Shown: positions 40,233-61,874 of the stretch, piece by piece
Position numbering within the stretch: position 1 is the stretch's first letter
Layout of the letters: each line of letters starts with the position of its first letter
Assembly: GCA_017619655.1 (NCBI GenBank)
Contig: JAFZRV010000012.1
Span: 2,988 to 66,987, forward strand
DNA from: Bacteroidales bacterium
GTDB taxonomy: Bacteria > Bacteroidota > Bacteroidia > Bacteroidales > UBA932
Direction: 5' to 3'
DNA: 64,000 nt
Program-made: the position numbers and the translations under genes
Notes under the pieces: model-generated
What the model saw: only the letters and a program-made list of their open reading frames with translations
Database searches by the model: none
Told to the model about the DNA's origin: nothing

Positions 40233-40925
40233 ATGAATCGAATCTACACCCGGACAGGCGACGGCGGTACCACCGGCATCCACGGCGGCGCCCGCGTGCC
40301 GAAAGACGACCCCCGCATCGAGGCCAACGGTACCCTTGACGAACTGAATTGCCAGATCGGCATCGTCCGCTCGATGCTGAGATGCCCGGTCAAGCCGGGC
40401 ATGACGGAAGAAGTCAAGCCGGGCATGACGGAAAGCGAGCGCAGCGACGGGCGGTATTTGTCGAGCGAGCATTTTTCTGCGAGCGAGACAAATACCGGAG
40501 GAGCGGAGCGAGCGTCGTATGATGATATCTTACACGCTATACAGAAGAACCTGATGACCGTCATGAGCCAGGTGGCGACGCCGGCGGCGGAGCGCAGCAA
40601 GAACCCCAATCCATTGCCCGAAAACCTCGTGGCCAATTGCGAAGCCACGATGGACGCCCTCACGGCCGAAGCAGGACCCAGCCGCCATTTCATCCTTCCC
40701 GGCGGAACCCCGCTGGCCGCCCGGTTGCAGCTGGCCCGCGCCGTCTGCCGCCGCGCCGAACGCCGCCTCTGGACCCTGCACCGGCAGGATCCGATTCCCG
40801 AAGCCATCTTGCAATACATCAACCGCCTCTCCGACCTGCTCTTTGTCCTGGCCCGCTGCGAACTCGCCCGGCAGGACTGGCCCGAAGAACGCTGGCAGGC
40901 CTTCTCTTATAAGAACCAGAAATGA
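40233..40925 (+). CDS. PduO-type ATP:cob(I)alamin adenosyltransferase with a roughly 40-aa internal insertion
   Basis: N-terminus MNRIYTRTGDGGTTGIHGGARVPKDDPRIEANGTLDELN and C-terminal FILPGGTPLAARLQLARAVCRRAER are canonical. The segment RCPVKPGMTEEVKPGMTESERSDGRYLSSEHFSASETNTGGAERASYDD is extra. Confidence 0.85.
   Translation: MNRIYTRTGDGGTTGIHGGARVPKDDPRIEANGTLDELNCQIGIVRSMLRCPVKPGMTEEVKPGMTESERSDGRYLSSEHFSASETNTGGAERASYDDILHAIQKNLMTVMSQVATPAAERSKNPNPLPENLVANCEATMDALTAEAGPSRHFILPGGTPLAARLQLARAVCRRAERRLWTLHRQDPIPEAILQYINRLSDLLFVLARCELARQDWPEERWQAFSYKNQK
40389..40436 (+). repeat. Tandem 24-nt duplication inside the adenosyltransferase gene
   Basis: gtcaagccgggcatgacggaa occurs twice head to tail (40389..40412 and 40413..40436), encoding VKPGMTEE/VKPGMTES. 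The first unit also forms the hairpin atgcccgg-tcaag-ccgggcat with upstream bases. Confidence 0.85.
40444..40513 (-). repeat. Palindromic repeat family, copy D (inverted orientation, inside the adenosyltransferase CDS)
   Basis: The reverse complement gctcgctccgctcctccggtatttgtctcgctcgcagaaaaatgctcgctcgacaaataccgcccgtcgc aligns over 70 nt with copies A and B. It has an 11-bp perfect inverted repeat cggtatttgtc/gacaaataccg. Confidence 0.7.
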
Positions 40926-42418
40926 AAGCCCCGCTCCATCCCGTGATGCTCGCCGGAACCGGCAGTGACGTCGGCAAGAGCGTGCTGGCCACCGCCCTGT
41001 GCCGCATCTTCAAGCAGGACGGCTATGCTCCCGCACCGTTCAAGGCCCAGAACATGGCCTTGAACTCCTTCGCCACGCCCGACGGTCTGGAGATCGGCCG
41101 TGCCCAGGCCGTGCAGGCCGAAGCGGCCGGCGTGCCCTGCCATACGGACATGAATCCGCTGCTGCTCAAGCCCCAGAGCGACCACACCTCGCAGGTGGTG
41201 CTGAATGGCCGCCCCATCGGCAACCGCGACGCCTACGACTATTTCCGGAAGGAGGGAAGGACTGAACTCCGCGAAGCCGTATATGCCGCTTATGACCGGC
41301 TTGCGGCACGCTTCAATCCCATCGTGATGGAAGGTGCCGGCAGCCTGGCTGAAATCAACCTGCGCGACTCCGACCTCGTCAACGTGCCGATGGCGATGCA
41401 CGCAGGCGCCGACATCCTCCTGGTCGGCGACATCGACCGCGGCGGGGTGTTCGCAAGCGTGTACGGCTCCATCATGCTGCTGCCGCCCGAAGAACGCAAG
41501 TATGTGAAGGGCATTTTGATCAATAAGTTCCGCGGCGACCTCCGGCTTTTCGAAGAAGGCAGGAAAATGCTCGAAGACCTGTGCGGCATCCCGGTGCTGG
41601 GCGTCGTGCCGTACTACCACGACATCCATATCGAAGAAGAGGATTCCGTGGCGCTGGCGGCCAAGTCTGCCGCCGCGCAGCGGGGCAAGGTCAACGTCGC
41701 GGTGGTCTTGCTGCGCCATATCAGCAACTTTACGGACTTCAATGCGCTGGAGCGCGATCCGCGCGTCCATCTGTTCTACAGCAACAACGTGGATGAGATT
41801 GCCAAAGCCGATGTGATCATCCTTCCAGGCAGCAAGAGCACGATCGATGATCTGTATGAACTGCGGCGCAACGGCGTGGCGCAGGCCATCCTGCGGGCCC
41901 GCCGCGAAGGCGCCTCGGTGCTGGGCATCTGCGGCGGCTACCAGATGATGGGCGTCCGGATCCGGGACCCGCACCACGTGGAGGGTGACTTGGAAGTGCT
42001 TCCGGGCCTGGGCCTGCTGCCGATGACCACGGAGATGCTGGGCGACAAGGTTACCCGGCAAGTCCGTTTCCAGGCCTTTGATGGCGCTGGAGAGACGATG
42101 GAAGGGTATGAGATCCATATGGGAAAGACCCTGCCGGTAGAGGGTCGTGCGTTCCGGCCGCTGAACCGGCTGGAAGACGGTCAGGAAGACGGCTGCATCG
42201 TGGATGAGAAGTGCATGGGCAGCTACATCCACGGCATCCTCGACAACCCGGCTTTCATCGACCGGCTGCTGGCGCCGCACGCCGCGAAGCTGACCGCTGC
42301 GGCGGCTTCTTTCGACTACCACGCCTTCAAGGAAGAACAATACGACAAACTGGCTGCCCACGTGCGGCAATATGTCGACATTCCGTTGTTGTACAAGATC
42401 TTGAGTGAACAACAATGA
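40922..42418 (+). CDS. cobQ: Cobyric acid synthase
   Basis: 498 aa with N-terminal GTGSDVGKS and a C-terminal GATase domain (GICGGYQMMG). Confidence 0.9.
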   Translation: MKAPLHPVMLAGTGSDVGKSVLATALCRIFKQDGYAPAPFKAQNMALNSFATPDGLEIGRAQAVQAEAAGVPCHTDMNPLLLKPQSDHTSQVVLNGRPIGNRDAYDYFRKEGRTELREAVYAAYDRLAARFNPIVMEGAGSLAEINLRDSDLVNVPMAMHAGADILLVGDIDRGGVFASVYGSIMLLPPEERKYVKGILINKFRGDLRLFEEGRKMLEDLCGIPVLGVVPYYHDIHIEEEDSVALAAKSAAAQRGKVNVAVVLLRHISNFTDFNALERDPRVHLFYSNNVDEIAKADVIILPGSKSTIDDLYELRRNGVAQAILRARREGASVLGICGGYQMMGVRIRDPHHVEGDLEVLPGLGLLPMTTEMLGDKVTRQVRFQAFDGAGETMEGYEIHMGKTLPVEGRAFRPLNRLEDGQEDGCIVDEKCMGSYIHGILDNPAFIDRLLAPHAAKLTAAAASFDYHAFKEEQYDKLAAHVRQYVDIPLLYKILSEQQ

Positions 42419-43458
42419 TACAGGGCCACGGTGACGACAGATATCGTTTTGACCGGGAAATCCGGGCGGACTTCAGCTCCAATGTCTATGCGCATGTGGA
42501 TCTGGAACCGCTGAAGGCGCATCTTCGAGCGCGCCTTGACGACATCGGCCGTTATCCTGAGCCGGAGCCTTACTCGTTGGAGAAGGCATTGGCGAAGCGA
42601 CTGGGCATCGATCCTGCTGCTGTCTGTGTCACCGCCGGCGCCACCGAAGCCATCTATCTCATCGCCCACGCCTTCAAGGGCAGTCATTCGACAATTCTTG
42701 CGCCGACGTTCAGTGAGTACGCTGATGCTTGCCGACTATACGCTCACTCCGTGGCTCCGGTTTCCGTCTTGCTCCCGAAAAAAGGTCGCTGCGCCGAAAA
42801 CCGCCCGCCACTTCATTCGCTTTTCTGGCTCTGCAATCCGAATAATCCGACGGGGACGGTCATTCCGAAGGAACAACTCGTTCGGGCCATCGAAGATAAT
42901 CCTGAGACGATTTTCGTCATCGACCAGTCGTATGGATTCTTTACCCAAGAAACCCTCCTGACGGCGAAAGAAGCCATTCGATACCCGAATGTGATCCAAC
43001 TCCACTCCATGACCAAACGCTACGCCATGCCCGGCCTGCGGCTGGGCTACATAACGGCCCATCCGCAACTGATCGAAAAGATCCGCAGCGTCCGCATGCC
43101 ATGGAGCGTCAACGCCCTGGCTATCGCGGCTGGCCTGTACCTGACACAACACCCAGATACGGCACGCATCGACCTGACGGCACTACTGACTGAAACACAG
43201 CGCCTTCGCGACCGGCTGAATGCCATCCCCGGCTTGACGGCCGAGCCCACCCAGACCCATTTCTTCCTCTGCCGTCTGGAGAAAGGCCGCGCCGCAGACC
43301 TCAAGCAGAGGCTGGCGGAAGAATACGGCATCCTCATTCGCGACGCTTCCAACTTTGAAGGACTCGACGAAGGCTGCTTCCGGATCGCCACGCAGACCCC
43401 TGAAGAAAACGACAGGCTGGTTGAAGCTATTAGAAACATACTGAAAGTCAATGTGTAG
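42415..43458 (+). CDS. cobD: Threonine-phosphate decarboxylase (class I/II aminotransferase fold)
   Basis: 347 aa with CNPNNPTG and a PLP-lysine region SMTKRYAMPGLRLGY. It sits between cobQ and cbiB. Confidence 0.8.
   Translation: MIQGHGDDRYRFDREIRADFSSNVYAHVDLEPLKAHLRARLDDIGRYPEPEPYSLEKALAKRLGIDPAAVCVTAGATEAIYLIAHAFKGSHSTILAPTFSEYADACRLYAHSVAPVSVLLPKKGRCAENRPPLHSLFWLCNPNNPTGTVIPKEQLVRAIEDNPETIFVIDQSYGFFTQETLLTAKEAIRYPNVIQLHSMTKRYAMPGLRLGYITAHPQLIEKIRSVRMPWSVNALAIAAGLYLTQHPDTARIDLTALLTETQRLRDRLNAIPGLTAEPTQTHFFLCRLEKGRAADLKQRLAEEYGILIRDASNFEGLDEGCFRIATQTPEENDRLVEAIRNILKVNV
42742..42811 (+). repeat. Palindromic repeat family, copy A (inside the cobD CDS)
   Basis: gctcactccgtggctccggtttccgtcttgctcccgaaaaaaggtcgctgcgccgaaaaccgcccgccac. 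By my hand alignment 59 of 70 positions are identical to copy B. It is translated as AHSVAPVSVLLPKKGRCAENRPP. Confidence 0.7.
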
Positions 43459-44395
43459 GGCCCTCTCCATACTCGCCGGTTGGCTGCTCGACCTGATCTT
43501 CGGAGATCCGGCGTGGCTGCCGCATCCGGTCGTGGGCTTCGGCAAGCTGATCGCCGCAGGGGAGAAACATTGGAACAAAGGGGAACACCGCCGCCGCAAG
43601 GGCGCCTGGCTCGCCATTGTGCTGGTACTGGGGACTTTTGTGTTGACGTTCGCATTGCTTTACGCTTGCCGGATGCTCGGTGAAACGCTCGGCATCGGCT
43701 TGTCGCTCAAGAGAATCATAGAAGCCATCCTGGTTTTTTTCTGCCTGGCCGGCACGACATTGATCCGCGAAGTGCGTGAAGTCTTCCGCGCCGTGGACCG
43801 TTCCGTCGAAGAGGGGAGAGAGCGCGTGGCCCGCATCGTGGGCCGCGACACGTCCGATCTTTCGGCACAGGAAATCCGCACGGCTGCGCTGGAGACGCTG
43901 GCCGAGAACCTGAACGACGGCGTGATAGCGCCGCTCTTCTGGCTGGCCCTGCTGGGCGTCCCCGGAATGATGGCTTACAAGATGATCAACACCCTCGACT
44001 CGATGATCGGCTACCGCAGCGAGCGATATGTCGATTTCGGCCGCTTTGCCGCCCGGATGGACGACGTGGCGGGCTGGGTTCCCGCGCGCCTGACAGCCTT
44101 CCTGATGCTGCTGGTGGCGGGACGCCTGGGTAAGCTGGCTTGGGTCCACCAGAACGGCCGAAAGCACCTGAGCCCCAATTCCGGCCATCCCGAGGCCGCC
44201 CTGGCCGCCATCCTCGACTGCCGTTTCGGCGGTCCCCACAACTATTTCGGACAGGAGGTCTGGAAGCCGTACATCGGTGAAAACGACCGCCCCCTGACCC
44301 ATTCTGACTTGCAGCGCGCTGTCCGCATCAGTCGCGTGTCTGAAGCGCTGATGGTTCTGATGGTCGCAGTCCTGAATCTAATCCCGTGTATATAA
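43451..44395 (+). CDS. cbiB: Adenosylcobinamide-phosphate synthase
   Basis: 314 aa membrane protein. LLDLIFGDPAWLPHPVVGFG and NDGVIAPLFW are typical CbiB/CobD segments. Confidence 0.9.
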   Translation: MCRALSILAGWLLDLIFGDPAWLPHPVVGFGKLIAAGEKHWNKGEHRRRKGAWLAIVLVLGTFVLTFALLYACRMLGETLGIGLSLKRIIEAILVFFCLAGTTLIREVREVFRAVDRSVEEGRERVARIVGRDTSDLSAQEIRTAALETLAENLNDGVIAPLFWLALLGVPGMMAYKMINTLDSMIGYRSERYVDFGRFAARMDDVAGWVPARLTAFLMLLVAGRLGKLAWVHQNGRKHLSPNSGHPEAALAAILDCRFGGPHNYFGQEVWKPYIGENDRPLTHSDLQRAVRISRVSEALMVLMVAVLNLIPCI

Positions 44396-44396
44396 C

Positions 44397-45806
44397 ATGA
44401 GCAATCCAAAAATCATCGTAGCCGGCATCGGGCCGGGAAGCGCGGGCGACATGACGCCAGCCGTGCTCGAGGCCGTCCGGCGCTCCGATGTGATCATCGG
44501 TTATCAATACTATTTCCAATTCGTGACGCCGTATCTGTCGCCCGACACGCTGTGCGTGGATACCGGGATGAAGAATGAGCGCGAGCGGGCCGAGGAGGCC
44601 TTTGCGTGGGCGGAGCAGGGCAAGACCGTGTGCGTGGTGAGTTCGGGTGATGCGGGCATCTATGGCATGGCGCCGCTCATCTGGGAGATGAAACGGGAGC
44701 GGGGGAGCGATGTGGAGATCGAGGTGCTGCCCGGCATCAGCGCCTTTCAGAAGGCTGCTTCGCTGCTGGGCGCGCCCATCGGCCACGACCTTTGCCTCAT
44801 CTCGCTGTCCGACCTGATGACGCCCTGGGAAACGATCGAGCGTCGCATCCGCGCCGCCGCCGTGGCCGATTTCGTGACGGCGGTCTACAACCCGAAGAGC
44901 TACGGACGTTATTGGCAGCTGTACCGCCTGCAGGAGATTTTCCTGCAGCACCGCGACCCGTCCACGCCGGTCGGCTATGTCTGCCAGGCCGGACGCGCCG
45001 ACGAGCAGGTCACGCTCACGACGCTGGGCGCTTTCGATCCGGAGCAGGTCGACATGTTCACCGTGGTGCTCATCGGGAATTCCCAGTCCTATGCCTACGA
45101 GGGCAAGTTCATCACGCCCCGCGGCTATTTCCGCGAGAACCGCAGCGAAGAAGCGAAAGGGGTGGGTCAGGAGATCATGATCGAGAGCTTCCGCACGATA
45201 GAGAAAGAACTGCGGCATCCGGATATCCCGCTCGGAAAAAAGTGGCCCCTGCTGCACGCCATCCATACAACTGCCGATTTCGATATGGAGAACATCCTGC
45301 AGGTCGACGACGGGGCAGTCGAAATCCTCTATGCCGGTTTCACGGAAGGCCGCATCAAGACCATCGTGACCGACGTGACGATGGTGGCTGCGGGCATCCG
45401 CAAGGGTGCCCTGCAGCGGCTCGGCGTCGAGGTCAAGTGCTATCTGTCCGATCCGCGGACGGCCGAACTGGCGGCGGAAAAGGGGATTACCCGCACCCAG
45501 GCCGGCATCCGGCTGGCCGTGGAGGAGCATCCCGACGCACTCTATGCCTTTGGCAACGCACCTACCGCGCTGATGGAACTCTGCACGCTCGTCCGCCGGG
45601 AAAAAGCCCGTCCCGCCGGCATCATCGCCGCTCCGGTCGGCTTTGTTCATGTGCGGGAAAGTAAACACATGGCCAAGCCTTTCCGAGAAATACCTAAACT
45701 GATAGTTGAGGGTAGAAAAGGCGGCAGCAACCTGGCCGCCACCCTCGTCAATTCCATCCTCTGCTTCAACGATGCGGAGGCACTTAAACCCGGTCGCGAT
45801 GTCTAG
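44397..45806 (+). CDS. cbiH: Fusion: cobalt-factor III/precorrin-3B C17-methyltransferase (CbiH) + precorrin-8X methylmutase (CbiC)
   Basis: The N-terminal half has the tetrapyrrole methylase motifs (GIGPGS, SSGDAGIYGMA, LISLSDLMTPWE). The C-terminal half has CbiC/CobH motifs (HAIHTTADF, FGNAPTAL, PVGFV). Confidence 0.85.
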   Translation: MSNPKIIVAGIGPGSAGDMTPAVLEAVRRSDVIIGYQYYFQFVTPYLSPDTLCVDTGMKNERERAEEAFAWAEQGKTVCVVSSGDAGIYGMAPLIWEMKRERGSDVEIEVLPGISAFQKAASLLGAPIGHDLCLISLSDLMTPWETIERRIRAAAVADFVTAVYNPKSYGRYWQLYRLQEIFLQHRDPSTPVGYVCQAGRADEQVTLTTLGAFDPEQVDMFTVVLIGNSQSYAYEGKFITPRGYFRENRSEEAKGVGQEIMIESFRTIEKELRHPDIPLGKKWPLLHAIHTTADFDMENILQVDDGAVEILYAGFTEGRIKTIVTDVTMVAAGIRKGALQRLGVEVKCYLSDPRTAELAAEKGITRTQAGIRLAVEEHPDALYAFGNAPTALMELCTLVRREKARPAGIIAAPVGFVHVRESKHMAKPFREIPKLIVEGRKGGSNLAATLVNSILCFNDAEALKPGRDV

Positions 45807-46986
45807 ACAACACTTCACTGTCATCGGCATGACGGACGACCGGTCGGTCTGGTTTCCGCCCGAAGTGCGGGCGGTCATTGCGTCGGGCCGTGTGTTCTCG
45901 GGTGGGAAGCGCCATCACGAAATCGTGGCGCCGCTGCTGCCGGAAGGCGCCGCGTGGATCGATATCACCGTGCCGCTCGAAGCGGTCTTCGACCAATATG
46001 CGGGACATGCGGAAGTGGTGGTTTTCGCCTCGGGCGATCCGCTTTTTTTCGGTTTCGCCAATACCCTGCGGCGGGAACTGCCTGACGCGGAGATCACGGT
46101 CTTTCCCTCGTTCAATTCCTTGCAGTTGCTGGCCCATCGGATCCTGTTGCCCTATGCCGACATGCGCACCGTATCGTTGACCGGCCGGCCCTGGGAGGCG
46201 TTTGACGAAGCTTTGATCCGGGGTGAACGGCTTATCGGCGTGCTGACCGACCGCCAGAAGACGCCCGCCCTCATCGCCCGGCGCATGCTTGAATACGGCT
46301 ACGACAACTACCGGATAACCGTAGGGGAGTGCCTGGGCAACCGCGACACCGAGCGGGTTCGCACTTTGTCGCTGGCTGAGGCGACGGCGGCCGAATTCGC
46401 TTTTCCCAACTGTCTCATCCTTGCGCAAACGGTTGCGAAAGTCCATCCTTTCGGCCTTCCCGAGCAGGATTTCGCCCTGCTGGACGGCCGCGTGAACATG
46501 ATTACAAAGATGCCCATCAGACTGCTGACCCTCAGTCAGTTGGATCTGGCGGGGCGGCGCTCTTTCTGGGATATCGGCTTCTGCACCGGCTCCGTTTCCA
46601 TCGAAGCCCGCCTCCGCTTCCCGCAGCTGCAGCTGACCGCCTTTGAAATCCGCGAAGCCGGCCGCGAACTCATGGCGCAGAATGCCCGCAAGTTCGGCGC
46701 TCCCGGCATCGACTTCCATATCGGTGACTTCCTCGAGGCTGACCTGTCCGCATTGCCCGCTCCTGACGCCGTTTTTATCGGCGGACACGGCGGCCGTCTG
46801 GGAGACTTTCTGCAGCGCATCGACGGCGTTCTGCTGCCCGGCGGCCGCATCGTCTTCAACGCGGTCAGCGAGCAGAGTCAGGCCCTTTTCCGCGCTGCCG
46901 TCGCCGCCGTCGGCCGCCGCATCACGAACGAAATGCATGTTTCGGTCGATTCCTTCAACCCCATTAACATCATGACCGCCGAATGA
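45799..46986 (+). CDS. cbiE: Fusion: precorrin-6Y C5,15-methyltransferase (decarboxylating), CbiE + CbiT
   Basis: Start MSRQHFTVIGM overlaps the upstream stop. The CbiE half has VVVFASGDPLFFG. The CbiT half has a SAM-methyltransferase fold (FWDIGFCTGSVSIE). Confidence 0.85.
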   Translation: MSRQHFTVIGMTDDRSVWFPPEVRAVIASGRVFSGGKRHHEIVAPLLPEGAAWIDITVPLEAVFDQYAGHAEVVVFASGDPLFFGFANTLRRELPDAEITVFPSFNSLQLLAHRILLPYADMRTVSLTGRPWEAFDEALIRGERLIGVLTDRQKTPALIARRMLEYGYDNYRITVGECLGNRDTERVRTLSLAEATAAEFAFPNCLILAQTVAKVHPFGLPEQDFALLDGRVNMITKMPIRLLTLSQLDLAGRRSFWDIGFCTGSVSIEARLRFPQLQLTAFEIREAGRELMAQNARKFGAPGIDFHIGDFLEADLSALPAPDAVFIGGHGGRLGDFLQRIDGVLLPGGRIVFNAVSEQSQALFRAAVAAVGRRITNEMHVSVDSFNPINIMTAE

Positions 46987-48914
46987 GTAGAGTAGCCATT
47001 ATAGTAGTATCTGAATCATCCCTGCCTATCGCTCAACGCATAGCGGCTTGCGTAGGCGAGGCTCGCTCCGCGGCTCTGGTATCCGTCTCGCTCCCGAAAA
47101 AAGGTCGCTTCACCGGATACCACCCGCCGCTAGGCGAGCCTGTGGCAGTTTATACGAAAAAAGAGATTGGATCCTATGGTAAGTTCTTGAAAGACAACTG
47201 GCAGGAGCTTGAGGCCATCGTCTTTATCGGCGCCCTCGGCATCTGTACCCGCAGTATCGCCCCGGCCCTGAAGAATAAATATGAGGATCCCGCCGTCGTC
47301 TGTATCGACAGTACCGGCCAATACGTCATTCCCGTCGTTTCCGGCCACATCGGCGGTGCCAACGACCTGGCTCGCCATATTGCTGAATCTATTGGTGCCC
47401 AAGCTATTGTAACGACGCAGAGCGACAACGAAGGCCTCTGGGCCCTCGATACCCTCGCACGCCAGTACGGCTGGCAGGTAGAGGCTAAGCCGGCCGAAAT
47501 GAACCGCGCCATCTTCGCCTTCGTCGAGAAAAAGCCCACGGCACTCCTGCTCGAAATCCGCGACGCCGGAACCGACTACCTCGAGCGGACCAAACCAGAA
47601 CATGTCCAAATCTTTTATCGCCGCGAAGACCTGAATGCCGGCGATTTCGCCCTGGTGATCGCCGTCACGCCCTCCGTCATGCCCGACGCCACCCTCGGCC
47701 ACGACCGGGGGTTGATCCGGCATCTCAACCTTCCCGATGACATGCCTTTGCTTGTATTCAACCCGCCGGTGCTCCACCTGGGCTTCGGCTGTCGGAAGCA
47801 ATGTGACCCGGCGGGAATCCCCGAAGCCATCGAGGCGAAACTCCGCGAGGCGGGCCTGTCGCCGAAATCCATCGCGACGGTCGGAACCGTCGAACTGAAG
47901 AAAGACGAAGCCCTGCTGCAGGCCCTGCTGGCCCAGTGGCCCCAGGCGCAGGCGGCCGTCTATCCCGCGGAAACCCTGGCGGCGATCGACGTGCCGAACC
48001 CGTCGGAGAAGGCGCTCGCCGCTACCGGGAGCGCCGGCGTGGCCGAAGCGGCCGCGATCGCCGGCGCCCAGGGCGGCCCTCTGCGCATTGAGAAGCAGAA
48101 GGGCCGGCTCTCCGAAGGCAACGATTTTACCTTTGCGGTGGCGCAGGGCGCCGCGTCGCTGCGCGCCGGACACATCGAGATTGTCGGCGCGGGTCCTGGA
48201 GACCCCGAACTGGTGTCCGTGCGCGGCAAACGCTTCCTCGAGCAAGCCGACCTCATCCTCTACGCCGGCAGCCTGGTGCCGGTCGAATTAACGCAGTACG
48301 CCAAGCACGGATGTACGGTGCGCAGTTCCGCCTCGATGGACCTGGAGGAGCAGTTCGCCCTGATGAAAGAATTCTATGACAAAGGCTTGCTGGTGGTGCG
48401 GCTGCATACCGGGGACCCCTGCCTCTACGGCGCCATCCAGGAACAGATGGCCTTCTTCGACCGCTACGGGATGGACTATCACATCACGCCGGGCATCTCG
48501 GCGTTCCAGGCAGCCGCCGCGGCGCTCCGCTCGCAGTTCACCATCCCCGAAAAGGTGCAGACCATCATCCTCACGCGCGGCGAAGGGCGCACGCCCATGC
48601 CGGAGCGGGAACAGCTGCACAAGCTCGCGCAGTCGCAGAGCACCATGTGCATCTACCTCAGCGCGGGCATCGTGGAAGAAGTGCAGGCCGAACTGCTGCA
48701 GGCCTATCCGCCTGAAACCCCTGTGGCCGCCTGCTACAAGCTGACCTGGAAGGAAGAACGCATCTACCGCGGCGTGCTTCGCGACCTGGCGAAGATCGTG
48801 CGGGACAACAACCTGACGCTCACCACGCTGCTCGTGGTGGGTGACGCCATCGGCAACCGCGAGGGCCTCTCGCGGCTCTATGCCCACGAATTCAAACACC
48901 TTTTCCGGAAATGA
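46983..48914 (+). CDS. cbiG: Fusion: cobalt-precorrin-5A hydrolase (CbiG) + cobalt-precorrin-4 C11-methyltransferase (CbiF)
   Basis: The CbiG part has GICTRSIAPALKNKYEDPAVVCIDSTGQYVIPVVSGHIGGAN. The CbiF part has VGAGPGDPELVSVRG, HTGDPCLYGA and TPGISAF. Confidence 0.85.
   Translation: MSRVAIIVVSESSLPIAQRIAACVGEARSAALVSVSLPKKGRFTGYHPPLGEPVAVYTKKEIGSYGKFLKDNWQELEAIVFIGALGICTRSIAPALKNKYEDPAVVCIDSTGQYVIPVVSGHIGGANDLARHIAESIGAQAIVTTQSDNEGLWALDTLARQYGWQVEAKPAEMNRAIFAFVEKKPTALLLEIRDAGTDYLERTKPEHVQIFYRREDLNAGDFALVIAVTPSVMPDATLGHDRGLIRHLNLPDDMPLLVFNPPVLHLGFGCRKQCDPAGIPEAIEAKLREAGLSPKSIATVGTVELKKDEALLQALLAQWPQAQAAVYPAETLAAIDVPNPSEKALAATGSAGVAEAAAIAGAQGGPLRIEKQKGRLSEGNDFTFAVAQGAASLRAGHIEIVGAGPGDPELVSVRGKRFLEQADLILYAGSLVPVELTQYAKHGCTVRSSASMDLEEQFALMKEFYDKGLLVVRLHTGDPCLYGAIQEQMAFFDRYGMDYHITPGISAFQAAAAALRSQFTIPEKVQTIILTRGEGRTPMPEREQLHKLAQSQSTMCIYLSAGIVEEVQAELLQAYPPETPVAACYKLTWKEERIYRGVLRDLAKIVRDNNLTLTTLLVVGDAIGNREGLSRLYAHEFKHLFRK
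47061..47130 (+). repeat. Palindromic repeat family, copy B (inside the cbiG N-terminus, flanked by an 8-bp direct repeat)
   Basis: gctcgctccgcggctctggtatccgtctcgctcccgaaaaaaggtcgcttcaccggataccacccgccgc is flanked by taggcgag at 47053..47060 and 47131..47138. Element plus one repeat is 78 nt, or 26 codons. Confidence 0.75.
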
Positions 48915-52573: not shown

Positions 52574-52574
52574 C

Positions 52575-53615: not shown

Positions 53616-53618
53616 CGG

Positions 53619-55019: not shown

Positions 55020-55029
55020 ACTTCCGTGC

Positions 55030-55800
55030 ATGATATCCGCTGAAACATTCCATATCTTCCTGCTGGTCATGGCCTTTCTGGCCGTCGTCGTCTTTGTCTC
55101 GCTCTTTTTCGTGGATGCGGGATACGGGAAGTTCTATACGCCGAAATGGGGCCCTTCGGTCGACAACCACCTGGGCTGGTTCCTGATGGAGGCGCCGGTA
55201 TTCGTGGCGATGCTGCTGCTCTGGTGGTTTTCCGACCGCCGTGCCGACAGCGTGCGCCTGGTTTTCCTGCTGCTCTTCGAACTGCACTATTTCCACCGCG
55301 CGTTCATCTTTCCCCTGCAGCTGCGGGGTCATGGCCGTATGCCGCTTTCCATCATCCTGATGGGCGTGGTCTTCAATACGCTGAATGCCTTCATGCAGGG
55401 CGGCTGGATCTTCTGGGTCTCGCCGCTGGATTACTATCCGTCCACCTGGCTGACGAGCCTGCCTTTCCTGGCCGGGACCTGCGTGTTCTTCACGGGCATG
55501 TATGTAAACATCCAGTCGGACCGTATCATCCGTCACCTGCGGAAGCCCGGCGATACGGCGCACTACCTGCCCAGGGGCGGGATGTTCCGCTACGTGACCA
55601 GCGCCAATTATTTCGGCGAGTTCCTGGAATGGGTGGGCTTCGCCATCCTGACCTGGTCCTGGGCCGGAGCGGTGTTCGCCCTGTGGACCTTTGCCAACCT
55701 GGCGCCGCGGGCCGCCCGGATCTACGAACTGTACCGCCACGATTTTCCCGACGAGCTGGACACGCACAAGGTCAAGCGCATCCTTCCTTTCATCTATTGA
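55030..55800 (+). CDS. 3-oxo-5-alpha-steroid 4-dehydrogenase (steroid 5-alpha-reductase, SRD5A-like) membrane protein
   Basis: The C-terminal segment GGMFRYVTSANYFGEFLEWVGFAILTWSWAGAVFALWTF closely resembles the eukaryotic SRD5A signature (GGLFEYVTAANYFGE...). It has about 6-7 TM helices. Confidence 0.8.
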   Translation: MISAETFHIFLLVMAFLAVVVFVSLFFVDAGYGKFYTPKWGPSVDNHLGWFLMEAPVFVAMLLLWWFSDRRADSVRLVFLLLFELHYFHRAFIFPLQLRGHGRMPLSIILMGVVFNTLNAFMQGGWIFWVSPLDYYPSTWLTSLPFLAGTCVFFTGMYVNIQSDRIIRHLRKPGDTAHYLPRGGMFRYVTSANYFGEFLEWVGFAILTWSWAGAVFALWTFANLAPRAARIYELYRHDFPDELDTHKVKRILPFIY

Positions 55801-55801
55801 T

Positions 55802-57052
55802 ATGGCTGACAAACAGATCAATTCTCCGGTCTTTACCCCCGTTACCCTGGGCCCGCTGACCCTGCGCAACCGGGTCATCCGCTCTTCCGCCTTCGAAAAC
55901 ATGGCCTACGGAAACCGCCCGTCGAAAGATTTGCGGGACTACCATGTGGCCGTGGCGCGGGGCGGCGTGGGCATGACCACGCTGGCCTACGCTTCCGTGA
56001 ACCGGAGCGGCCTTTCGTTCGACGGGCAGCTCTGGATGCGCGAGGAGATCGTGCCGGCGTTGCGGGAGATCACGGATGCGGTGCATGCCGAAGGCGCGAA
56101 ATGTTCCATCCAGCTGGGCCATTGCGGCAACATGACGCACCGGGCGACCTGCGGCTGCATGCCGGTAGGCCCTTCGAGCGGTTTCAATCTCTATTCGCCG
56201 ACCTTCGTGCGCGGCCTGAAAGTGTCGGAGCTCGATGCGCTGGTCGACGATTTCGGCCATGCGGTCGGCCTGGCGCGTGCGGCGGGCTTCGATTGCGTGG
56301 AGATCCATGCGGGGCACGGCTATCTCATCAGCCAGTTCCTTTCTCCCTACACCAACCATCGCCGGGACGAATACGGAGGGTCGCTGGAAAACCGCATGCG
56401 GTTGATGCGCCGGGTGATCACGCGGGTGCTGGAGGCGGCGGGCGACGACCTGGCCGTCATCGTGAAAATGAACATGTGGGACGGTTTTCGCCGCGGCATG
56501 CAGGAGCCCGAGTGCCTGGAAGTGGCCCGGGAACTCGAACGGCTGGGCGTGCACGCGATCGTGCTCTCGGCCGGTTTCGTGAGCAAGGCGCCGATGGAAG
56601 TGATGCGGGGTGCGATGCCCATCCGTACGCTGACGCACTATATGGACATGCGCAAGTTCTGGTGGCTCAAGGCCATGATCCGGCTCTTCGGCCGGGTGAT
56701 GATACCGACGGTACCTTACAGCGAGGGCTATTTCCTGGAGCGGGCGAAGCGCTTCCGCGCGGAACTGTCGCTGCCCCTGATCTACGTGGGCGGCCTGACT
56801 TCGCTCGCCAAGATGGAAGAAGTGCTGGCGGCGGGCTTCCAGGGTCTGCAGCTGGCCCGCGCGCTGATCCGCGACACGGATTTCGTCAACAAGCTGCACG
56901 CGGGCGAAATCGTCCGGAGCGACTGCCGCCATTCGAATTACTGCATCGGGCGGATGTATACCCTGGAAATGAAATGCAACCGCTGCGTGGCGGAGCTGCC
57001 GGCATCGCTGCGCCGCGAAGTGGAAAAAGCGGAGGAACGATGGTCGCATTGA
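55802..57052 (+). CDS. Old-yellow-enzyme-type NADH:flavin oxidoreductase (candidate 3-oxo-Delta4-steroid 5-beta-reductase)
   Basis: TIM-barrel OYE motifs (SIQLGHCG, VEIHAGHGYLISQFLSP, YVGG). It directly follows the 5-alpha-reductase gene. Confidence 0.75.
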   Translation: MADKQINSPVFTPVTLGPLTLRNRVIRSSAFENMAYGNRPSKDLRDYHVAVARGGVGMTTLAYASVNRSGLSFDGQLWMREEIVPALREITDAVHAEGAKCSIQLGHCGNMTHRATCGCMPVGPSSGFNLYSPTFVRGLKVSELDALVDDFGHAVGLARAAGFDCVEIHAGHGYLISQFLSPYTNHRRDEYGGSLENRMRLMRRVITRVLEAAGDDLAVIVKMNMWDGFRRGMQEPECLEVARELERLGVHAIVLSAGFVSKAPMEVMRGAMPIRTLTHYMDMRKFWWLKAMIRLFGRVMIPTVPYSEGYFLERAKRFRAELSLPLIYVGGLTSLAKMEEVLAAGFQGLQLARALIRDTDFVNKLHAGEIVRSDCRHSNYCIGRMYTLEMKCNRCVAELPASLRREVEKAEERWSH

Positions 57053-57807
57053 TCACGGGCGGCAGTTCCGGCATGGGACTGGAATTCGCGCGGCAGCTGG
57101 CGCTGCGGGGCTACGACCTGGTGCTGGTCAGCAACCGGGAGGAGGAGTTGTCGGCAGCGGCTGCGCAGTTGCGGGAGCAGGCCTCCGTCCGAATTCTCAC
57201 GCATACGCACGACCTGGCGCAGGCCGATTCGGCCGATACGCTTTGGGCCTGGTGCCGGGCAGAATCCCCGCTGCCGGACGTGTGGGTCAACGATGCCGGC
57301 ATGTTCTTCTTCAAGGAGCTGTCGCTGGAAGACCTGGACCGCGTGCAGGCGATGCTGCATCTGCATGTCCAGACCGTCACGCGGCTCTGCCTGCTGGTCG
57401 GTGCCGCGATGAAGGAGCGGGGGAGCGGCTATATCCTGAACGTTTCGTCGATGGCGGCCCGCCTGCCCGTGCCGGGCATTACGGTCTACAGTGCCACGAA
57501 AGCCTATCTTCGGAGTTTCGGCCGCTCTTACTCCTATGAACTGAATCCCTACGGCGTGGGCTTGACGACCGTCTGTCCGGCGGCTATCGCCACGCCGCTC
57601 TATAACCTGGACGAGCGCCTGATGCGGCTCGGCGTGAAGATGGGTGTCATTCGCACCCCGAAGTGGCTGGTTCGGCGGGCTTTGCGGGCCATGTTCCGCA
57701 AGCGACGCGTCGTCAGTCCTGCGCCGATGAACCTGTGGCTGCCCGCCCTGATCGGCCTGTTGCCCGGCCCTGTGATCGCCAGGCTCTGGAAAAAATGGAA
57801 ACGATGA
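57040..57807 (+). CDS. SDR-family oxidoreductase (candidate hydroxysteroid dehydrogenase I)
   Basis: TGGSSGMG, NDAG, and YSATKAY catalytic Tyr/Lys. It overlaps the upstream gene by 13 nt. Confidence 0.8.
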   Translation: MVALITGGSSGMGLEFARQLALRGYDLVLVSNREEELSAAAAQLREQASVRILTHTHDLAQADSADTLWAWCRAESPLPDVWVNDAGMFFFKELSLEDLDRVQAMLHLHVQTVTRLCLLVGAAMKERGSGYILNVSSMAARLPVPGITVYSATKAYLRSFGRSYSYELNPYGVGLTTVCPAAIATPLYNLDERLMRLGVKMGVIRTPKWLVRRALRAMFRKRRVVSPAPMNLWLPALIGLLPGPVIARLWKKWKR

Positions 57808-58616
57808 CGCCCTACGTCCTCATCACGGGCGCTTCGGGCGCCATGGGCGCCGCCGCAACGGAAGCGCTGGCCGCGGCGGGACAGCCCGTGTTGATGGCTG
57901 TCCGGAATCCGGAGAAAGCGGAAGCCGTCCGCAGCGGTATCCTCTCACGTGTGCCGCAGGCCGATCTGGCCATTGCGGAACTGGACCTGGCTTCGCTGGC
58001 CTCGGTCCGCCGCTTCGCCGCCGCCCTCGAGCCCGGCAGCGTCGCGGCCCTGTTCAACAATGCCGGGGTCATCGCGAAAAAGTATGCGCTCACCGAAGAC
58101 GGCTTCGAACAGTCCTTCGCGGTCAATTACTTCGGACCCTGGCTCCTGACGCGGCTGTTGCTGCCGAAGCTGGCGTCCGGGGCGCGCATCGTGAACATGG
58201 TGTCGCTGACCTGCAAGCTGGTGGACCTCGACGTTGCGGGGCTTCAGCCCGGCCCGGATGACTTCAGCCAGCTCGGCACCTACGCCCGCTCGAAGCGGGC
58301 CCTGCTCTCGTTCTCGCAGGAACTGGCGCGCCGGTATCCGGAATTCGCGGTCAACGTGGCCGATCCCGGCATCGTGGCTTCCAACATGATCGACCTCGGC
58401 CATTGGTATGACCCTCTGGCCGACGTGCTGTTCAAGCCTTTCTGCCGGCGGCCGGAAAAGGGCGTCCGGCCCGCGCTTCGCGCGCTGGAAGCAGGCGACG
58501 GCCCACGCTACTACGTGGGACGAAAAAACCGGGAGATACCCCGGTGTTTTCTCGACGCGTCCTTCGACGCGCGTCTCTGGGAAGCGACGGAAACGCTTAC
58601 CGGCGTTTCATCGTAG
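57795..58616 (+). CDS. SDR-family oxidoreductase (candidate hydroxysteroid dehydrogenase II)
   Basis: TGASGAMG, NNAG, and YARSKRA catalytic Tyr/Lys. It overlaps the upstream SDR by 13 nt. The alternative start is ATG 57804. Confidence 0.8.
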   Translation: METMTPYVLITGASGAMGAAATEALAAAGQPVLMAVRNPEKAEAVRSGILSRVPQADLAIAELDLASLASVRRFAAALEPGSVAALFNNAGVIAKKYALTEDGFEQSFAVNYFGPWLLTRLLLPKLASGARIVNMVSLTCKLVDLDVAGLQPGPDDFSQLGTYARSKRALLSFSQELARRYPEFAVNVADPGIVASNMIDLGHWYDPLADVLFKPFCRRPEKGVRPALRALEAGDGPRYYVGRKNREIPRCFLDASFDARLWEATETLTGVSS

Positions 58617-59301
58617 CCAGGTTCAAAACCAGATAATACGTAAGGATCAGGAAGATGCAGAGGCTCACGGTCACGTACCAGGGGCCCCGGATCTCGCGGA
58701 TGACGCAGGCGATGACCAGCACGACGCTGCCGACGATGAAGGCCTTGAGCTGTCCCGTCATCTTCTTGAGGGAGAACATCGGCAGCTCGCAGACCAGCAG
58801 GTAGGAAAAGACCGCCGAAAGCACGGGGATAAACCAGACCGTGCCCATGAGGGTGTGCAGGAAGCCGTCGGTGTAGAAGGAATAGACGGACAGGGGCGTG
58901 AGCAGCAGGGCGCAGCCCGACGTGGCCAGGCCGAGGAAACTGGTGGCCTGCCGGGTGTCGATGTTGAATTTGGCGAGCCGCATCGCCGAGGCGGCGGTCA
59001 GCACGAAGGGGAACCAGCGCAGGAAGGGAATGTCCGGCTGCGCGATGCCGTACCAGGAAAAGAGGCAGACGGCGGGACAGAGGCCGAAGCTCACCAGGTC
59101 GGCGAGGGAGTCCAGCTCCTTGCCGATCGGGGAATAGGCGTGCAGCGCCCGCGCCGAGAAGCCGTCGAAGAAATCGAAGAGTTCGGAAGCCATCAGGGTG
59201 ATCAGTACGGCCTGGAAATTACCCCGCACGGCAAAAACAACCCCTGTGCAACCCGAAAGGAGGTTGCACAGGGTGATCAGGTTCGGAATGTGTTTCTTCA
59301 T
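58597..59301 (-). CDS. pssA: CDP-diacylglycerol--serine O-phosphatidyltransferase (CDP-alcohol phosphatidyltransferase family)
   Basis: DGFSARALHAYSPIGKELDSLADLVSFG matches the D-G-x2-A-R-x8-G-x3-D-x3-D motif. The protein is polytopic. Confidence 0.85.
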   Translation of the reverse strand: MKKHIPNLITLCNLLSGCTGVVFAVRGNFQAVLITLMASELFDFFDGFSARALHAYSPIGKELDSLADLVSFGLCPAVCLFSWYGIAQPDIPFLRWFPFVLTAASAMRLAKFNIDTRQATSFLGLATSGCALLLTPLSVYSFYTDGFLHTLMGTVWFIPVLSAVFSYLLVCELPMFSLKKMTGQLKAFIVGSVVLVIACVIREIRGPWYVTVSLCIFLILTYYLVLNLATMKRR

Positions 59302-60419
59302 CAGAGACCGAGTTTCTTGCGGATGTCCTTCGGAATGGCATCCTTATGGACCATGATGCTGACGGTGCGCATCTGGAGGTAGGCCTTCGACATGAAGAGA
59401 TAGCCCTTCAGGTCGTTGTTCTCGCCCCAGGAATTCTTGGTCTTGTAGAAGTTGTTGCCGTTCTGGTCGGTGTACAGGCCGGTCAGATGCATCAGGTGGT
59501 CGTCGACGGTGCGGAAGGTCTCGAAGTCCTTCTGGCGGATCTCCTGCGTCACGACGCGGTCGGGGAAGACCTGCTCCAGTTTGACGGCTTCCTTGAATTC
59601 CTTCGGATCGGGGCAGATGGCGATGCCGCGGCCGTGCTGGAACTCACCGCTGGTCAAGTCGCCGTCCCAGGCCACGGTGTAGCCATGGGTCAGCGCGTTG
59701 TCGATGATGGCCATCAGTTCGTCCAGGGGCACGTTCCACAGCAGCGCGTGGTCCCAGTTGTCGGGGATTTCCAGCGGAACCTGCTGGTAGAACGGGTGGT
59801 GGCTGAAGCTGGTCAGCTCGATGTATTCGCTCATGTCGTCGAAGCCCAGCATCTTGGCGAAGCTCTTCGGGGTGTATTCCTTGCCGTCGTACCGGAAGGT
59901 CTCGGGCATCTCGCCCAGGTAAATGTCGAAGAGGCTCTTGATGAGCTTGTCGTATTCCGGGCTGAGCCGCTTGAGGTTCACCGACACGTCGGCGATGCCC
60001 TTCAGGTAGGCGGACAGCTCGCCGTGGTTGTGGCGCGGGGAGTCATAGTTGATGCCGGTGTAGACGCTCTCCGGCACGATGCCGTATTTCTGGACGGCCT
60101 GCGTGGCCATATGGGCGATCGAACCGGGGTTGATGTTGCCGTTGCCGCGGCGCAGGTAGTTGTCGAAGATGCGGTCGTTGTAGTTGTTGCGGACGACGAA
60201 CATCTCGGAGAGGTCGTACTCGCCTTTGCCCTGGCGGAGGAGTTCCGCTTCGAGGAAGGAGACCGTGGCGAAGCACCAGCAGGTGCCCGTGGCGGCCTGG
60301 TCCTTCACCGGCGTGACGGGGATGTCACGCACGGCCGTGAACTGGTAGATGGTCTGGTTCTGTGCAAAAGCAGCGGTGCACAAGACCGCTGCCAATGCCA
60401 AGGTGAAAAACCGTTTCAT
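59301..60419 (-). CDS. Secreted C1-family (papain-like, aminopeptidase C/bleomycin-hydrolase-like) cysteine peptidase
   Basis: Signal peptide MKRFFTLALAAVLCTAAFA, catalytic Cys context QAATGTCWCFA, and a later DDHLMHLTG His region. Confidence 0.8.
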   Translation of the reverse strand: MKRFFTLALAAVLCTAAFAQNQTIYQFTAVRDIPVTPVKDQAATGTCWCFATVSFLEAELLRQGKGEYDLSEMFVVRNNYNDRIFDNYLRRGNGNINPGSIAHMATQAVQKYGIVPESVYTGINYDSPRHNHGELSAYLKGIADVSVNLKRLSPEYDKLIKSLFDIYLGEMPETFRYDGKEYTPKSFAKMLGFDDMSEYIELTSFSHHPFYQQVPLEIPDNWDHALLWNVPLDELMAIIDNALTHGYTVAWDGDLTSGEFQHGRGIAICPDPKEFKEAVKLEQVFPDRVVTQEIRQKDFETFRTVDDHLMHLTGLYTDQNGNNFYKTKNSWGENNDLKGYLFMSKAYLQMRTVSIMVHKDAIPKDIRKKLGL

Positions 60420-61646
60420 TTATTTGATGCCGAGTTTCTTCTGGATATCTTTCGGGATGGCGTTCTTGTGGACCATGAAGTCCATGGTCTTGTAGCGCAC
60501 GTAGGCTTCCGACACGTACCAGAGGCCCTTGTACTTGCCGGTCTCGCCCCAGGAGTTCTTCACCATGTAGTACTTGGTGCCGTTCTGGTCCTTGGCGATG
60601 CCGTAGATCTGCATGCCGTGGTCATCGGTGGTGTTCTTCTCCTCATAGCCCTGCTGGCGGAGTTCCGGGGTGATGGTCAGTTCGGGGACCGGCTTGTTGA
60701 AGGTCGGACGCTGGCCTTGCGGGGCGGCGCCAACCCAGCGCGCCTGGTCGGAGCCGGCCTGCTGGGCCTGTTTCTGGATGGCGTCCATGTCGGGCACGAT
60801 GCCGATGCCGTCGCGGGTGAAGCCCGTCTCGCTCACGTCGGAGGCCCAGGCCACGGTGTAGCCGTTCTCCACGGCGTAGTCGATGATGGCCATCATGTCC
60901 TCGAGGGGAACGTTGTAGGCCTGCTCCCAGCGCCAGTTGTCGGCCACTTCCACGGGGTGCTTCTCATAGTAGGAGAGGTGCGTCCAGGAGGTGAAGTCAA
61001 GGTAGTCGTCCATATTGACGTTCAGGCTCTCGAAGTAGCTCTTCGGGGTGTATTCCTTGCCCTTGTAGGTGAATTTCTCCGGGATGGGGCCGAGGTAGGC
61101 GTCCAGGATGCCCTGGAAACCTTTGAGCCAGGCGGTGGAGAGCTTGCGGTTGGGGTTTTTCAGGATACCGTCCATGTAGCCTTTGAGGCCGGCGAGGAGC
61201 TCGCCGTGCATATGGCGGTCGGTGCCGTAGTTCAGGCCGGGCATCACCTCATTGGGGACGATGCCGTAGGTCTTGAGCACGGTGACGAGGTCGCCGAACG
61301 AGCTGCCCTGCGCGAAATTGAGGGCGCCGTCCACGCGGATGTATTTGACAGCCTTGTCGGCGTAGGCGTGGGACACGACGAACATCTCGGAAAGGTCGGG
61401 ATAATCGGCTTCTTTCAGCTTGTTGATGCGGATGGCTTCCGATTCGATGAACGAGAGGGACGAGAAGCACCAGCAGGTTCCGGTGCTGGCCTGGTTCTTC
61501 ACGGAGGTGATGGGGTTCTCCTTCACGACGGTGAATTTGAAGCCGTCTTTGTCTTCGGGTCTCGGGGGCATGGGGCCTCCCATCGGGGGCTGTGCGGTGG
61601 CGGCGATACTGATGAGCGCCAGGGCGAAAAGAAGGATTTTCTTCAT
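60420..61646 (-). CDS. Secreted C1-family cysteine peptidase, tandem paralog
   Basis: Start MKKILLFALALISIAATA, catalytic Cys context QASTGTCWCFS, and DDHGMQIYG His region. A TATATTTG box lies upstream (plus-strand caaatata at 61686..61693). Confidence 0.8.
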   Translation of the reverse strand: MKKILLFALALISIAATAQPPMGGPMPPRPEDKDGFKFTVVKENPITSVKNQASTGTCWCFSSLSFIESEAIRINKLKEADYPDLSEMFVVSHAYADKAVKYIRVDGALNFAQGSSFGDLVTVLKTYGIVPNEVMPGLNYGTDRHMHGELLAGLKGYMDGILKNPNRKLSTAWLKGFQGILDAYLGPIPEKFTYKGKEYTPKSYFESLNVNMDDYLDFTSWTHLSYYEKHPVEVADNWRWEQAYNVPLEDMMAIIDYAVENGYTVAWASDVSETGFTRDGIGIVPDMDAIQKQAQQAGSDQARWVGAAPQGQRPTFNKPVPELTITPELRQQGYEEKNTTDDHGMQIYGIAKDQNGTKYYMVKNSWGETGKYKGLWYVSEAYVRYKTMDFMVHKNAIPKDIQKKLGIK

Positions 61647-61808
61647 ATCGGAAATGGTTTTGATGAATTGTCTGTTTCCAATCCACAAATATAAGAAAAC
61701 GCATTGAGAAAAGCAAGACTGACAATTTGTCATAAAAATATCATTGGTCGCTTTTTTGATTGTCCATCGGCGGGCTTTGCAGAAATGGACGAGGATGCTT
61801 AGGGCGTC

Positions 61809-61874
61809 GCAGCGGGTGGTGTTCGGCGCAGCGACCTTTTTTCGGGAGCAAGACGAACACCAGAGCAGCAGAGC
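61809..61874 (-). repeat. Palindromic repeat family, copy C (intergenic, upstream of clpB)
   Basis: The reverse complement gctctgctgctctggtgttcgtcttgctcccgaaaaaaggtcgctgcgccgaacaccacccgctgc aligns with copies A and B. The inner stem ggtgttcg/cgaacacc is perfect. Confidence 0.7.

Follow-up and report, generated by a model that had tools for sequence, protein, structure and literature searches.

A 64,000-nt stretch of Bacteroidales DNA (contig JAFZRV010000012.1 of assembly GCA_017619655.1, positions 2,988 to 66,987 of the forward strand; hereafter the window) contains four copies of a short hairpin-forming repeat, three of which lie in frame within cobalamin genes. We consider it likely, at a probability of about 0.7, that they belong to a family, specific to this lineage, of small hairpin-forming DNA repeats that are non-autonomous and resemble in behavior both repetitive extragenic palindromic (REP) sequences, with their REP doublets forming hairpins (REPINs), and Rickettsia palindromic elements (RPEs). 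A first-pass annotation of the window had located all four copies; the unit, which it took to be about 70 nt long, is nearer 81 nt and has conserved CGCTCGCTYC and TKCGCTCGCT ends. With these limits the copies are as follows.

Copy A, 42741..42821, plus strand: 81-nt unit, sense, within cobD (L-threonine-O-3-phosphate decarboxylase, 42415-43458).
Copy B, 47060..47140, plus strand: 81-nt unit, sense, in the N-terminal extension of a CbiG-methyltransferase fusion (46983-48914).
Copy C, 61799..61879, minus strand: intergenic, 28 nt upstream of the clpB start codon.
Copy D, 40434..40514, minus strand: variant-core unit, antisense, within a PduO-type ATP:cob(I)alamin adenosyltransferase gene (40233-40925).

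The four segments are significantly similar. A 20-nt core, GCTCCCGAAAAAAGGTCGCT, is exact in A (42771-42790, plus strand), B (47090-47109, plus) and C (61830-61849, minus), where dinucleotide shuffles lead one to expect no match. The centre of D is a variant with a GCA-GAAAAA-TGC tip, so the conserved centre first ascribed to all copies holds for the other three. An unsupervised repeat search of the window paired A with B, A with C, B with C and B with D, and a covariance model made from 22 other copies scored A, B, C and D at 87.9, 91.7, 91.7 and 51.3 bits, respectively (E 1e-24 to 1e-13; D 1.5e-13). D is opposite in orientation to A and B, as first described, and so is C, which had been missed.

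The host open reading frames (ORFs) are readily assigned. The CobD ORF matches PDB 3fkd (E 3e-78); the PduO-type ORF matches Pfam Cob_adeno_trans (E 7e-56) in two stretches that are split by copy D; and the host of copy B is a fusion of CbiG with a tetrapyrrole methylase, in which the copy precedes the Pfam CbiG_N domain (starting at aa 68). Copy A codes for AHSVAPVSVLLPKKGRCAENRPPLHSL (aa 110-136 of CobD) and copy B for ARSAALVSVSLPKKGRFTGYHPPLGEP (aa 27-53 of the fusion). Both begin at codon position 1 and share one element frame; the peptide common to them is in frame and free of stops as proposed, its sequence being corrected to VSV[LS]LPKKGR. Copy D is read in the PduO ORF as the 27-residue SERSDGRYLSSEHFSASETNTGGAERA. 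An independent gene caller, run on the 160-kb ruminant metagenome scaffold that is the source contig, drew the same ORFs through the inserts, giving proteins of 230, 347 and 643 aa. The tryptic peptides predicted from these ORFs to span the junctions are CAENRPPLHSLFWLCNPNNPTGTVIPK (CobD) and FTGYHPPLGEPVAVYTK (CbiG). Copy C is flanked by divergent genes, a peptidase C1-like gene (60420-61733, minus strand) and a clpB-like gene (61907-63958, plus strand).

Alignments reveal a unit of ∼81 nt, or 27 codons, that forms a hairpin of three tiers, its asymmetric internal loops invariant and its tip rich in A. From the 5′ end, CGCTCGCTYC is followed by the outer stem P1 (5-7 bp), TCT, the inner stem P2 (8 bp, GGTnTnnG) and TCTY, and beyond the tip hairpin come TKCRC, P2′, ACCC, P1′ and TKCGCTCGCT. 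The internal loops are TCT/ACCC, between P1 and P2, and TCTY/TKCRC, between P2 and the tip, which in the main type reads GC..CC-GAAAAAA-GG..GC. The inner G-C and C-G pairs of P1 are invariant and its other pairs vary. This delimitation is based on the conserved end motifs and on recurring peptide limits: a 27-residue segment bounded by SERS...AERA appears both in the antisense reading in PduO and in many CobD homologs. The ends are placed only to within a base or two, because none of the sites compared is a clean, element-only empty site. Some intergenic copies are embedded in longer, unrelated palindromic flanks (aaagatagctttgc/gcaaagctatcttt; gagtaaatgc/gcatttactc), an arrangement that, judged by sequence, looks like insertion into the tip of a pre-existing hairpin. 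CTAC, the reverse complement of GTAG, is found no more than 12 nt from the 3′ anchor in 20 of 72 copies (CTGC in 15 and CTTC in 11), and CGTC stands near the 3′ end of some, such as window copy C and the L005/L019 group, without being consistent (L and P numbers are our handles for related loci and for protein homologs). Inverted doublets, tail-to-tail or head-to-head, are present at the RluA site and at the fabG-upstream site.

The family extends well beyond the window. In a reference set of one genome per species (185,579 species), which does not include the window's own genome, the exact core was found at 20 loci, all in six uncultured ruminant Bacteroidales metagenome-assembled genomes (MAGs), distributed as follows.

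RGIG3317: nine exact-core loci.
SRR8387721_bin.25: five.
Red_deer_1_mag_74: three.
Three further MAGs: one each.

The exact core also occurs in 43 metagenome contigs, and the covariance model picks up variant-core copies near canonical ones. Altogether, the search for further copies in related genomes and metagenomes yielded 85 distinct ones at more than 30 different genomic sites, a sample in which an exact-core search favors copies with a conserved centre. One copy with identical flanks of more than 1 kb lies on two RGIG3317 contigs (9 and 10; L012:3243-3331 and L014:393-481), through either a duplicated region or assembly redundancy. The close ClpB homologs bear the name Candidatus Cacconaster, Bacteroidales incertae sedis. 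The core and the companion mini-hairpin described below were absent from the viral contigs searched, plasmid and phage collections contained no match to an 89-nt unit, and Rfam gave no match at the copies (at the gathering score across the whole window, and up to E 10 around copy A). [quoted passage not shown] The in-frame behavior of a hairpin repeat, best known from Rickettsia, has apparently not yet been described in this phylum.

Copies were placed in ORFs with a codon model for all six frames that had been trained on the cobalamin operon; a first codon-usage classifier had been dropped, as sense and antisense ORFs were not separable in a 59% G+C genome (59% is also the G+C content of the window). 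At least 20 of the 85 copies lie clearly within ORFs, a conservative count that misses window copy B, near an N terminus. Insertions use phases 1 and 2 in sense and all three phases (0, 1 and 2) in antisense. The preference for cobalamin genes that was first inferred holds within the window; in the family at large, most copies are intergenic, at gene edges or in genes unrelated to cobalamin. The intergenic ones include copies upstream of clpB, fabG and trmH and between the 3′ ends of convergent genes. In-frame intragenic copies comprise A, B and D of the window together with those of L018, L008/L010, L019/L005, L003 and L015, and the hosts outside the window are these.

PduO ortholog: copy at the same site as D.
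ComEA-like helix-hairpin-helix protein.
RluA-type pseudouridine synthase: two adjacent copies.
SpoU/TrmH methylase: domain split in two by the copy.
An ORF without a Pfam match.

That the in-frame insertions introduce no stop survived testing. On average 5.06 of the six frames of a copy are stop-free, and 42% of copies lack a stop in every frame; the corresponding figure is 6% for random genomic 65-mers and 1.3% for shuffles. Intergenic and coding copies do not differ in this respect, so freedom from stops is a property of the family rather than the product of a filter acting after insertion; since the copies share descent, their six-frame openness amounts to about one observation (p about 0.01-0.06). 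Being 27 codons long and nearly stop-free in six frames, an intragenic copy does not break its gene.

Structural comparison places the inserts in loops. In the AlphaFold model of CobD (mean predicted local distance difference test score, pLDDT, 88.7), the insert forms a short strand and then a low-confidence loop, with a pLDDT of 56 over residues 121-130, falling under 50 at residues 127-132, before the next core strand begins. In PduO, the alignment to solved adenosyltransferases falls into two stretches and leaves residues 50-95 unmatched between them; one of these structures, 2g2d, has ∼8 residues there. These models and alignments fit a reading of the inserts as surface-loop insertions.

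The stems of the element vary in a paired way throughout the family. Among 69 distinct aligned copies, P2 is 97.1% paired, changes occur on both sides in 13 of 15 pairs, and 7 of the 8 inner-stem pairs carry compensated changes. Double-change cells number 186, compared with 58 ± 7 in column shuffles (none of 500 reaching the observed value) and 17-61 when the partners are slid by 1-3 columns. This alignment was fitted to the model and thus favors the structure; a MAFFT alignment of 22 copies agrees with it. There are ten different perfectly complementary P2 stems, their variation centred on three stem positions, and the tip stem appears as CC/GG, GC/GC, GCA/TGC, GGCA/TGCC or GGGC/GCCC, while the asymmetric loops remain fixed. 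Of the mismatched intermediates, 6 cells are G.T and 5 are A.C, near-equal frequencies that argue against a one-strand RNA and for DNA or both strands.

Individual copies depart from this pattern, and the compensation first reported for all four window copies stands with exceptions. Copy B folds at -21.3 kcal/mol (z = -4.4). The inner stem of copy A (ggtttccg/cgaaaacc) carries one C.A mismatch, and its folding is no better than that of shuffles (z = +0.36). The outer stem is intact in A and B, has one mismatch in C and is mismatched at two of five positions in D. Across orthologous sites we count ∼35 compensated pair changes against ∼10 one-sided ones, in a register that is approximate. At the PduO site, three lineages show three different perfect stems and no one-sided change; the copies orthologous to D there (L018, L024 and L025) each have their own perfectly paired stem. 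The covariation had been taken as a sign of selection on a folded structure. Pairing is indeed preserved, but compensated stems could reflect selection for pairing, arm-to-arm templated correction or replacement by a sister copy. Templated correction of one arm from the other is known for quasi-palindromes.

Orthologous copies also date the family. Element identity outside the core and flank identity run in parallel (0.988/0.976, 0.940/0.924, 0.863/0.848 and 0.792/0.786); element divergence tracks flank divergence, and the copies are therefore old and inherited vertically with the genome. Copies persist at orthologous sites in species whose flanks are only 76-82% identical. A stronger constraint on the element than on its mostly coding flanks was considered and not seen in this comparison. 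Orientation can differ at a given site: it is flipped between L021 and L052 (flanks 96% identical) and between L002 and both L016 and L051 (93-97%), and it also differs between window B and L054 and L025 and between window A and L055 and L056.

Empty sites, which the first-pass annotation had proposed to look for, were found upstream of clpB and at the CbiG N terminus. The clpB-upstream site is empty in L068, a relative with a 95% identical ClpB and the same pepC-clpB synteny; the flanks align with the window (ttggtcgcYtttttga ... aaaaaggagg-ATG) around 12 nt, compared with ∼130 nt including copy C. L068 was rejected as a clean empty site, the difference being these ∼130 nt and not the unit alone. 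The site is also empty in L067 (ClpB 84%) and is occupied in L052, in the opposite orientation to copy C. At the same spot, L069 (1240-1470; ClpB 91%) carries a GC-rich palindrome of ∼230 nt that is unrelated to copy C and whose outer arms, gtgtcgtttcagtg/cactgaaacgacac, are 14 bp long. This suggests a common insertion hotspot for different hairpin elements. At the CbiG N terminus, the segment corresponding to copy B is absent from more distant orthologs; one homolog has an antisense variant copy there and others have tandem mini-hairpin peptides. The trmH gene has a full copy in L015 and just the two ends, gcttcgctgctctggtattttgttccacccgcta, in L004, which is a centre-deleted relic, so that this pair too was ruled out as a clean empty site.

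The CobD loop that holds copy A is a mosaic. Between EYADAC and WLCNPN, 116 close homologs have from 26 to 109 residues, in which peptides of the element, read in various frames and orientations, are combined with mini-hairpin repeats and repeat peptides of other kinds. With element debris in every close homolog, this loop was likewise rejected as a clean empty site. The Porphyromonas gingivalis CobD (3fkd) has an ordinary 20-residue segment at the hotspot. Other recurring peptides at this position are ARKNLFSPGTSPELKEPSAPPGPR, NRWRKAKQRVGFGLDSIFSAGQNETQSSGA (duplicated in P0083 and P0105) and AGLVEQPVFLFCEGSQQKRVPVAPEEKAS, seen in homologs P0050-P0119, P0083, P0097-P0106, P0012 and P0018; they may derive from further repeat families.

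A second, smaller hairpin, ATGCCGGGTCAAGCCCGGCATGAC, lies directly past the 3′ end of the main element in a subset of copies, window copy D included. Its positions are given below.

Companion mini-hairpin in the window, 40382..40429, plus strand: ATGCCCGGTCAAGCCGGGCATGAC and a 24-nt tandem duplicate, abutting the 3′ end of copy D and read as RCPVKPGMTEEVKPGMTE.
Mini-hairpin copies elsewhere: L010:5374-5397, L015:5760-5783, L033:11534-11557, L035:3367-3390, L042:3543-3566 and L062:3185-3208.

In L015, L035, L062 and L010 it stands beside the 3′ end of the main element, which is its usual position. It expands in 24-nt tandem arrays that reach four to six units in CobD and CbiG homologs (P0093, P0121), where it is read as VKPGMT(E/D), (I/M)PGQAG(N/H)D or MPGLTGH; the PGQAGND and MPGLTGH frames occur in homologs of both CbiG and CobD. 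A second variable loop of CbiG (window 47690-47730; aa 237-248, LGHDRGLIRHLN) has 12 extra residues. In P0121 and P0126 this loop reads MPGLTGHLNP, which is the mini-hairpin read antisense, and the window DNA there, ggccacgaccgggggttgatccggcat, has the appearance of a decayed mini-hairpin.

We propose the following course of events. Copies would have spread as DNA within the genomes of the ancestors of this rumen Bacteroidales clade. The mover was probably trans-acting and recognized a folded single strand; a transposase of the HUH/Y1 type associated with REP sequences (REP-associated tyrosine transposase, RAYT) is the leading candidate, none having been found. Insertion, as the occupied sites suggest, took place into intergenic hairpins and permissive protein loops, where intragenic copies leave the gene unbroken and would be read as extra loop residues. 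Most copies are by now old residents, inherited vertically, that keep their pairing by compensated changes, sometimes lose the centre or pile up at hotspots, and at times seem to flip. Structure recognition, conserved unpaired bases, inverted doublets and vertical persistence make the REP/REPIN-RAYT system, by analogy, the best-fitting model.

Several observations weigh against this proposal. A Pfam scan of essentially all genes in the window revealed no transposase or recombinase, and 474 kb around the copies, searched with a six-frame HUH...Y regular expression and, as a lead only, by tblastn with IS200 TnpA and Escherichia coli RAYT queries, yielded no HUH/Y1 motif or IS200/RAYT-like ORF. 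No target-site duplication was detected in 72 copies or in window copy C compared with the empty L068, and the sites compared include no clean, element-only empty one. There is no sign of recent movement, orthologous copies diverging at the pace of their flanks; the REP-typical GTAG tag is found in only ∼20 of 72 copies; and translation of the inserts is presumed from intact ORFs. Between the two copies of L012, the genes, as read from ORF translations, are ComF-like and PNPOx-like, with no transposase among them.

The variety of elements at single spots raises the possibility, which we regard as unlikely, of a consortium of unrelated GC-rich hairpins (the 81-nt unit, the 24-nt mini-hairpin, the ∼230-nt palindrome of L069 and the sources of the further CobD-loop peptides) that share a structure-targeting insertion process. 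Insertion would then be aimed at hairpin tips or earlier copies, without target duplication and with flipping in place. A mechanism common to several hairpin families would explain why different elements sit at the same spots. If it operates, repeated hits at a few spots would act as a generator of variable surface loops in conserved enzymes, and the process would be an insertion mechanism of a new kind, perhaps involving a new enzyme, and not a further REP family.

The near invariance of the TCT/ACCC loops and the 20-nt centre while the stems vary would also be expected of a site maintained by the host: a folded or cruciform-prone DNA structure, bound by a nucleoid protein, gyrase, a recombinase or a repair factor, selected site by site and no longer mobile, as has been proposed for some clusters of REPs and bacterial interspersed mosaic elements (BIMEs). 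The retention of copies in species with 76-82% identical flanks, and the excess of compensated over one-sided changes at those sites, speak for it as well. We nevertheless consider it quite unlikely. The copies lie in unrelated places, including the middle of enzymes, and in either orientation; the close relative L068 does without one; some copies lose the centre; the element evolves no more slowly than its flanks; and the exact-core search itself biases the sample toward conserved centres.

Strong covariation and conserved loop nucleotides could instead mark a cis-acting structured RNA (an mRNA stabilizer, a processing site or a translational pause) selected as RNA, the more so as many copies are in transcribed regions, whether in the 5′ leaders of clpB, fabG and trmH or at gene ends. 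This appears improbable to us: copies take both orientations relative to the host gene and are flipped at orthologous sites, G.U intermediates are not in excess over A.C, Rfam gives no match up to E 10, and copy A has lost its stability. An invertible DNA switch, in which a site-specific recombinase acting on the inverted arms produces programmed inversion as in the invertons of Bacteroidales, is more improbable still. It would account for the opposite orientations seen at the same site within 93-97% identical flanks (L021/L052; L002 versus L016 and L051), but no recombinase gene lies nearby, no promoter-like content was seen, and in many ORF copies a flip alters only the peptide; moreover, the inverted arms of palindromes also invert spontaneously, and independent insertion in either orientation is possible. 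Finally, we reject the reading of the shared segments as ancestral protein sequence (a conserved peptide module or linker), to which we give almost no credence, since, although A and B code for similar peptides in the same frame, the same DNA encodes parts of other proteins in several frames and from both strands and also lies between genes, and the segments are missing from solved structures and distant orthologs.

With filters off, the covariance model found nothing in the window beyond A-D except one weak match.

Possible core-deleted relic, 9367..9432, plus strand: intergenic; TCTGGAGTTCG-GCTCGC-CGAACTCCAGCC; 18.7 bits, E 0.0016.

Its membership in the family is uncertain, a possibility raised by sequence resemblance. 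It adjoins and partly overlaps a 29-bp, 93% complementary hairpin with a T-run end (window 9367-9474), and the two stand just before a minus-strand tRNA gene (9512-9585). Two cobalamin riboswitches (Rfam RF00174; 26085-26280 and 36574-36805, 94.6 and 91.6 bits) each precede a gene for a TonB-dependent receptor, the first in a series of genes for cobalamin uptake and synthesis, and the repeat copies stand downstream of the second riboswitch. The window also contains an AbiEii/AbiEi toxin-antitoxin pair (7611-9208), a short AbiEii fragment adjoining a DUF6088 gene (1296-2451) and two tandem paralogous peptidase C1-like genes of the aminopeptidase C type (59301-61733; ∼72-79% identity in stretches), an arrangement upstream of clpB that is kept in L067 and L068.

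In-frame invasion of housekeeping genes by palindromic repeats has so far been treated as a peculiarity of Rickettsia and tied to the small populations and relaxed selection of intracellular bacteria. The same behavior in free-living, abundant rumen Bacteroidales suggests a wider occurrence. At least two co-resident repeat families take part in it here, with a CobD loop hotspot of 26-109 residues and a unit whose two strands are both stop-free, and it provides a natural setting in which to ask how random loop insertions are tolerated by enzymes and how hairpin repeats last while staying paired. It is also a warning for MAG annotation and protein-family alignment, as Pfam domains are split by the inserts and protein diversity looks greater than it is. 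The covariance model from this analysis could help to find the mobilizing enzyme in complete genomes.

Of the known systems, RPEs are the first to compare, and the likeness to them noted in the first-pass annotation holds for behavior and not for family membership. RPEs (Ogata et al. 2000, as summarized in PMC10969869 and PMC3733652) are reported to be ∼100-150 bp long, to form ten families confined to Rickettsia, and to occur between genes and in frame within unrelated housekeeping genes, where they add a peptide, in loops, to a protein that is kept; they have a CGTC tag at one end (PMC3733652). The Bacteroidales repeat shares the short palindromic form, the intergenic and in-frame locations in unrelated genes and the placement of inserts in loops. 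Its ∼81-nt length and its rumen Bacteroidales host set it apart from the RPE families, and in its case ORFs read through either strand in several frames and a single loop can accumulate different elements.

[quoted passage not shown] The imperfect hairpin, conserved unpaired bases, variable compensated stems, inverted copy pairs, preference for gene ends, long vertical persistence and lack of target duplication are all REP-like. In contrast, at least 20 of 85 copies are within ORFs, whereas REPs are mostly extragenic; no RAYT is near any copy in the 474 kb searched; and copy number appears low, the best-sampled MAG having nine copies with the exact core. Only about one copy in four has the GTAG tag, and for this reason we do not class the element as a canonical REP.

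Among bacterial MITEs, in-frame fusions are made by ERIC, QMITE1 of Coxiella and the Anabaena MITEs (PMC10969869). Like them, the Bacteroidales repeat is small and non-autonomous, has inverted arms and can be read through in genes; it differs in that neither a target-site duplication nor a parent insertion sequence was detected in the sequence around the copies. Because its arms vary by compensated changes, recognition of a structure fits better than recognition of a fixed terminal sequence. The G+C-rich hairpin clusters and the 'byp' elements of yeast mitochondria are likewise mobile GC-rich hairpins that enter coding regions and are tolerated in them; both are organellar, and byp elements are skipped by the ribosome, whereas the stop-free inserts of the Bacteroidales repeat, a multiple of three in length, point to plain translation. 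The Bacteroidales repeat thus works like the RPEs and stands outside both the RPE and the canonical REP families.

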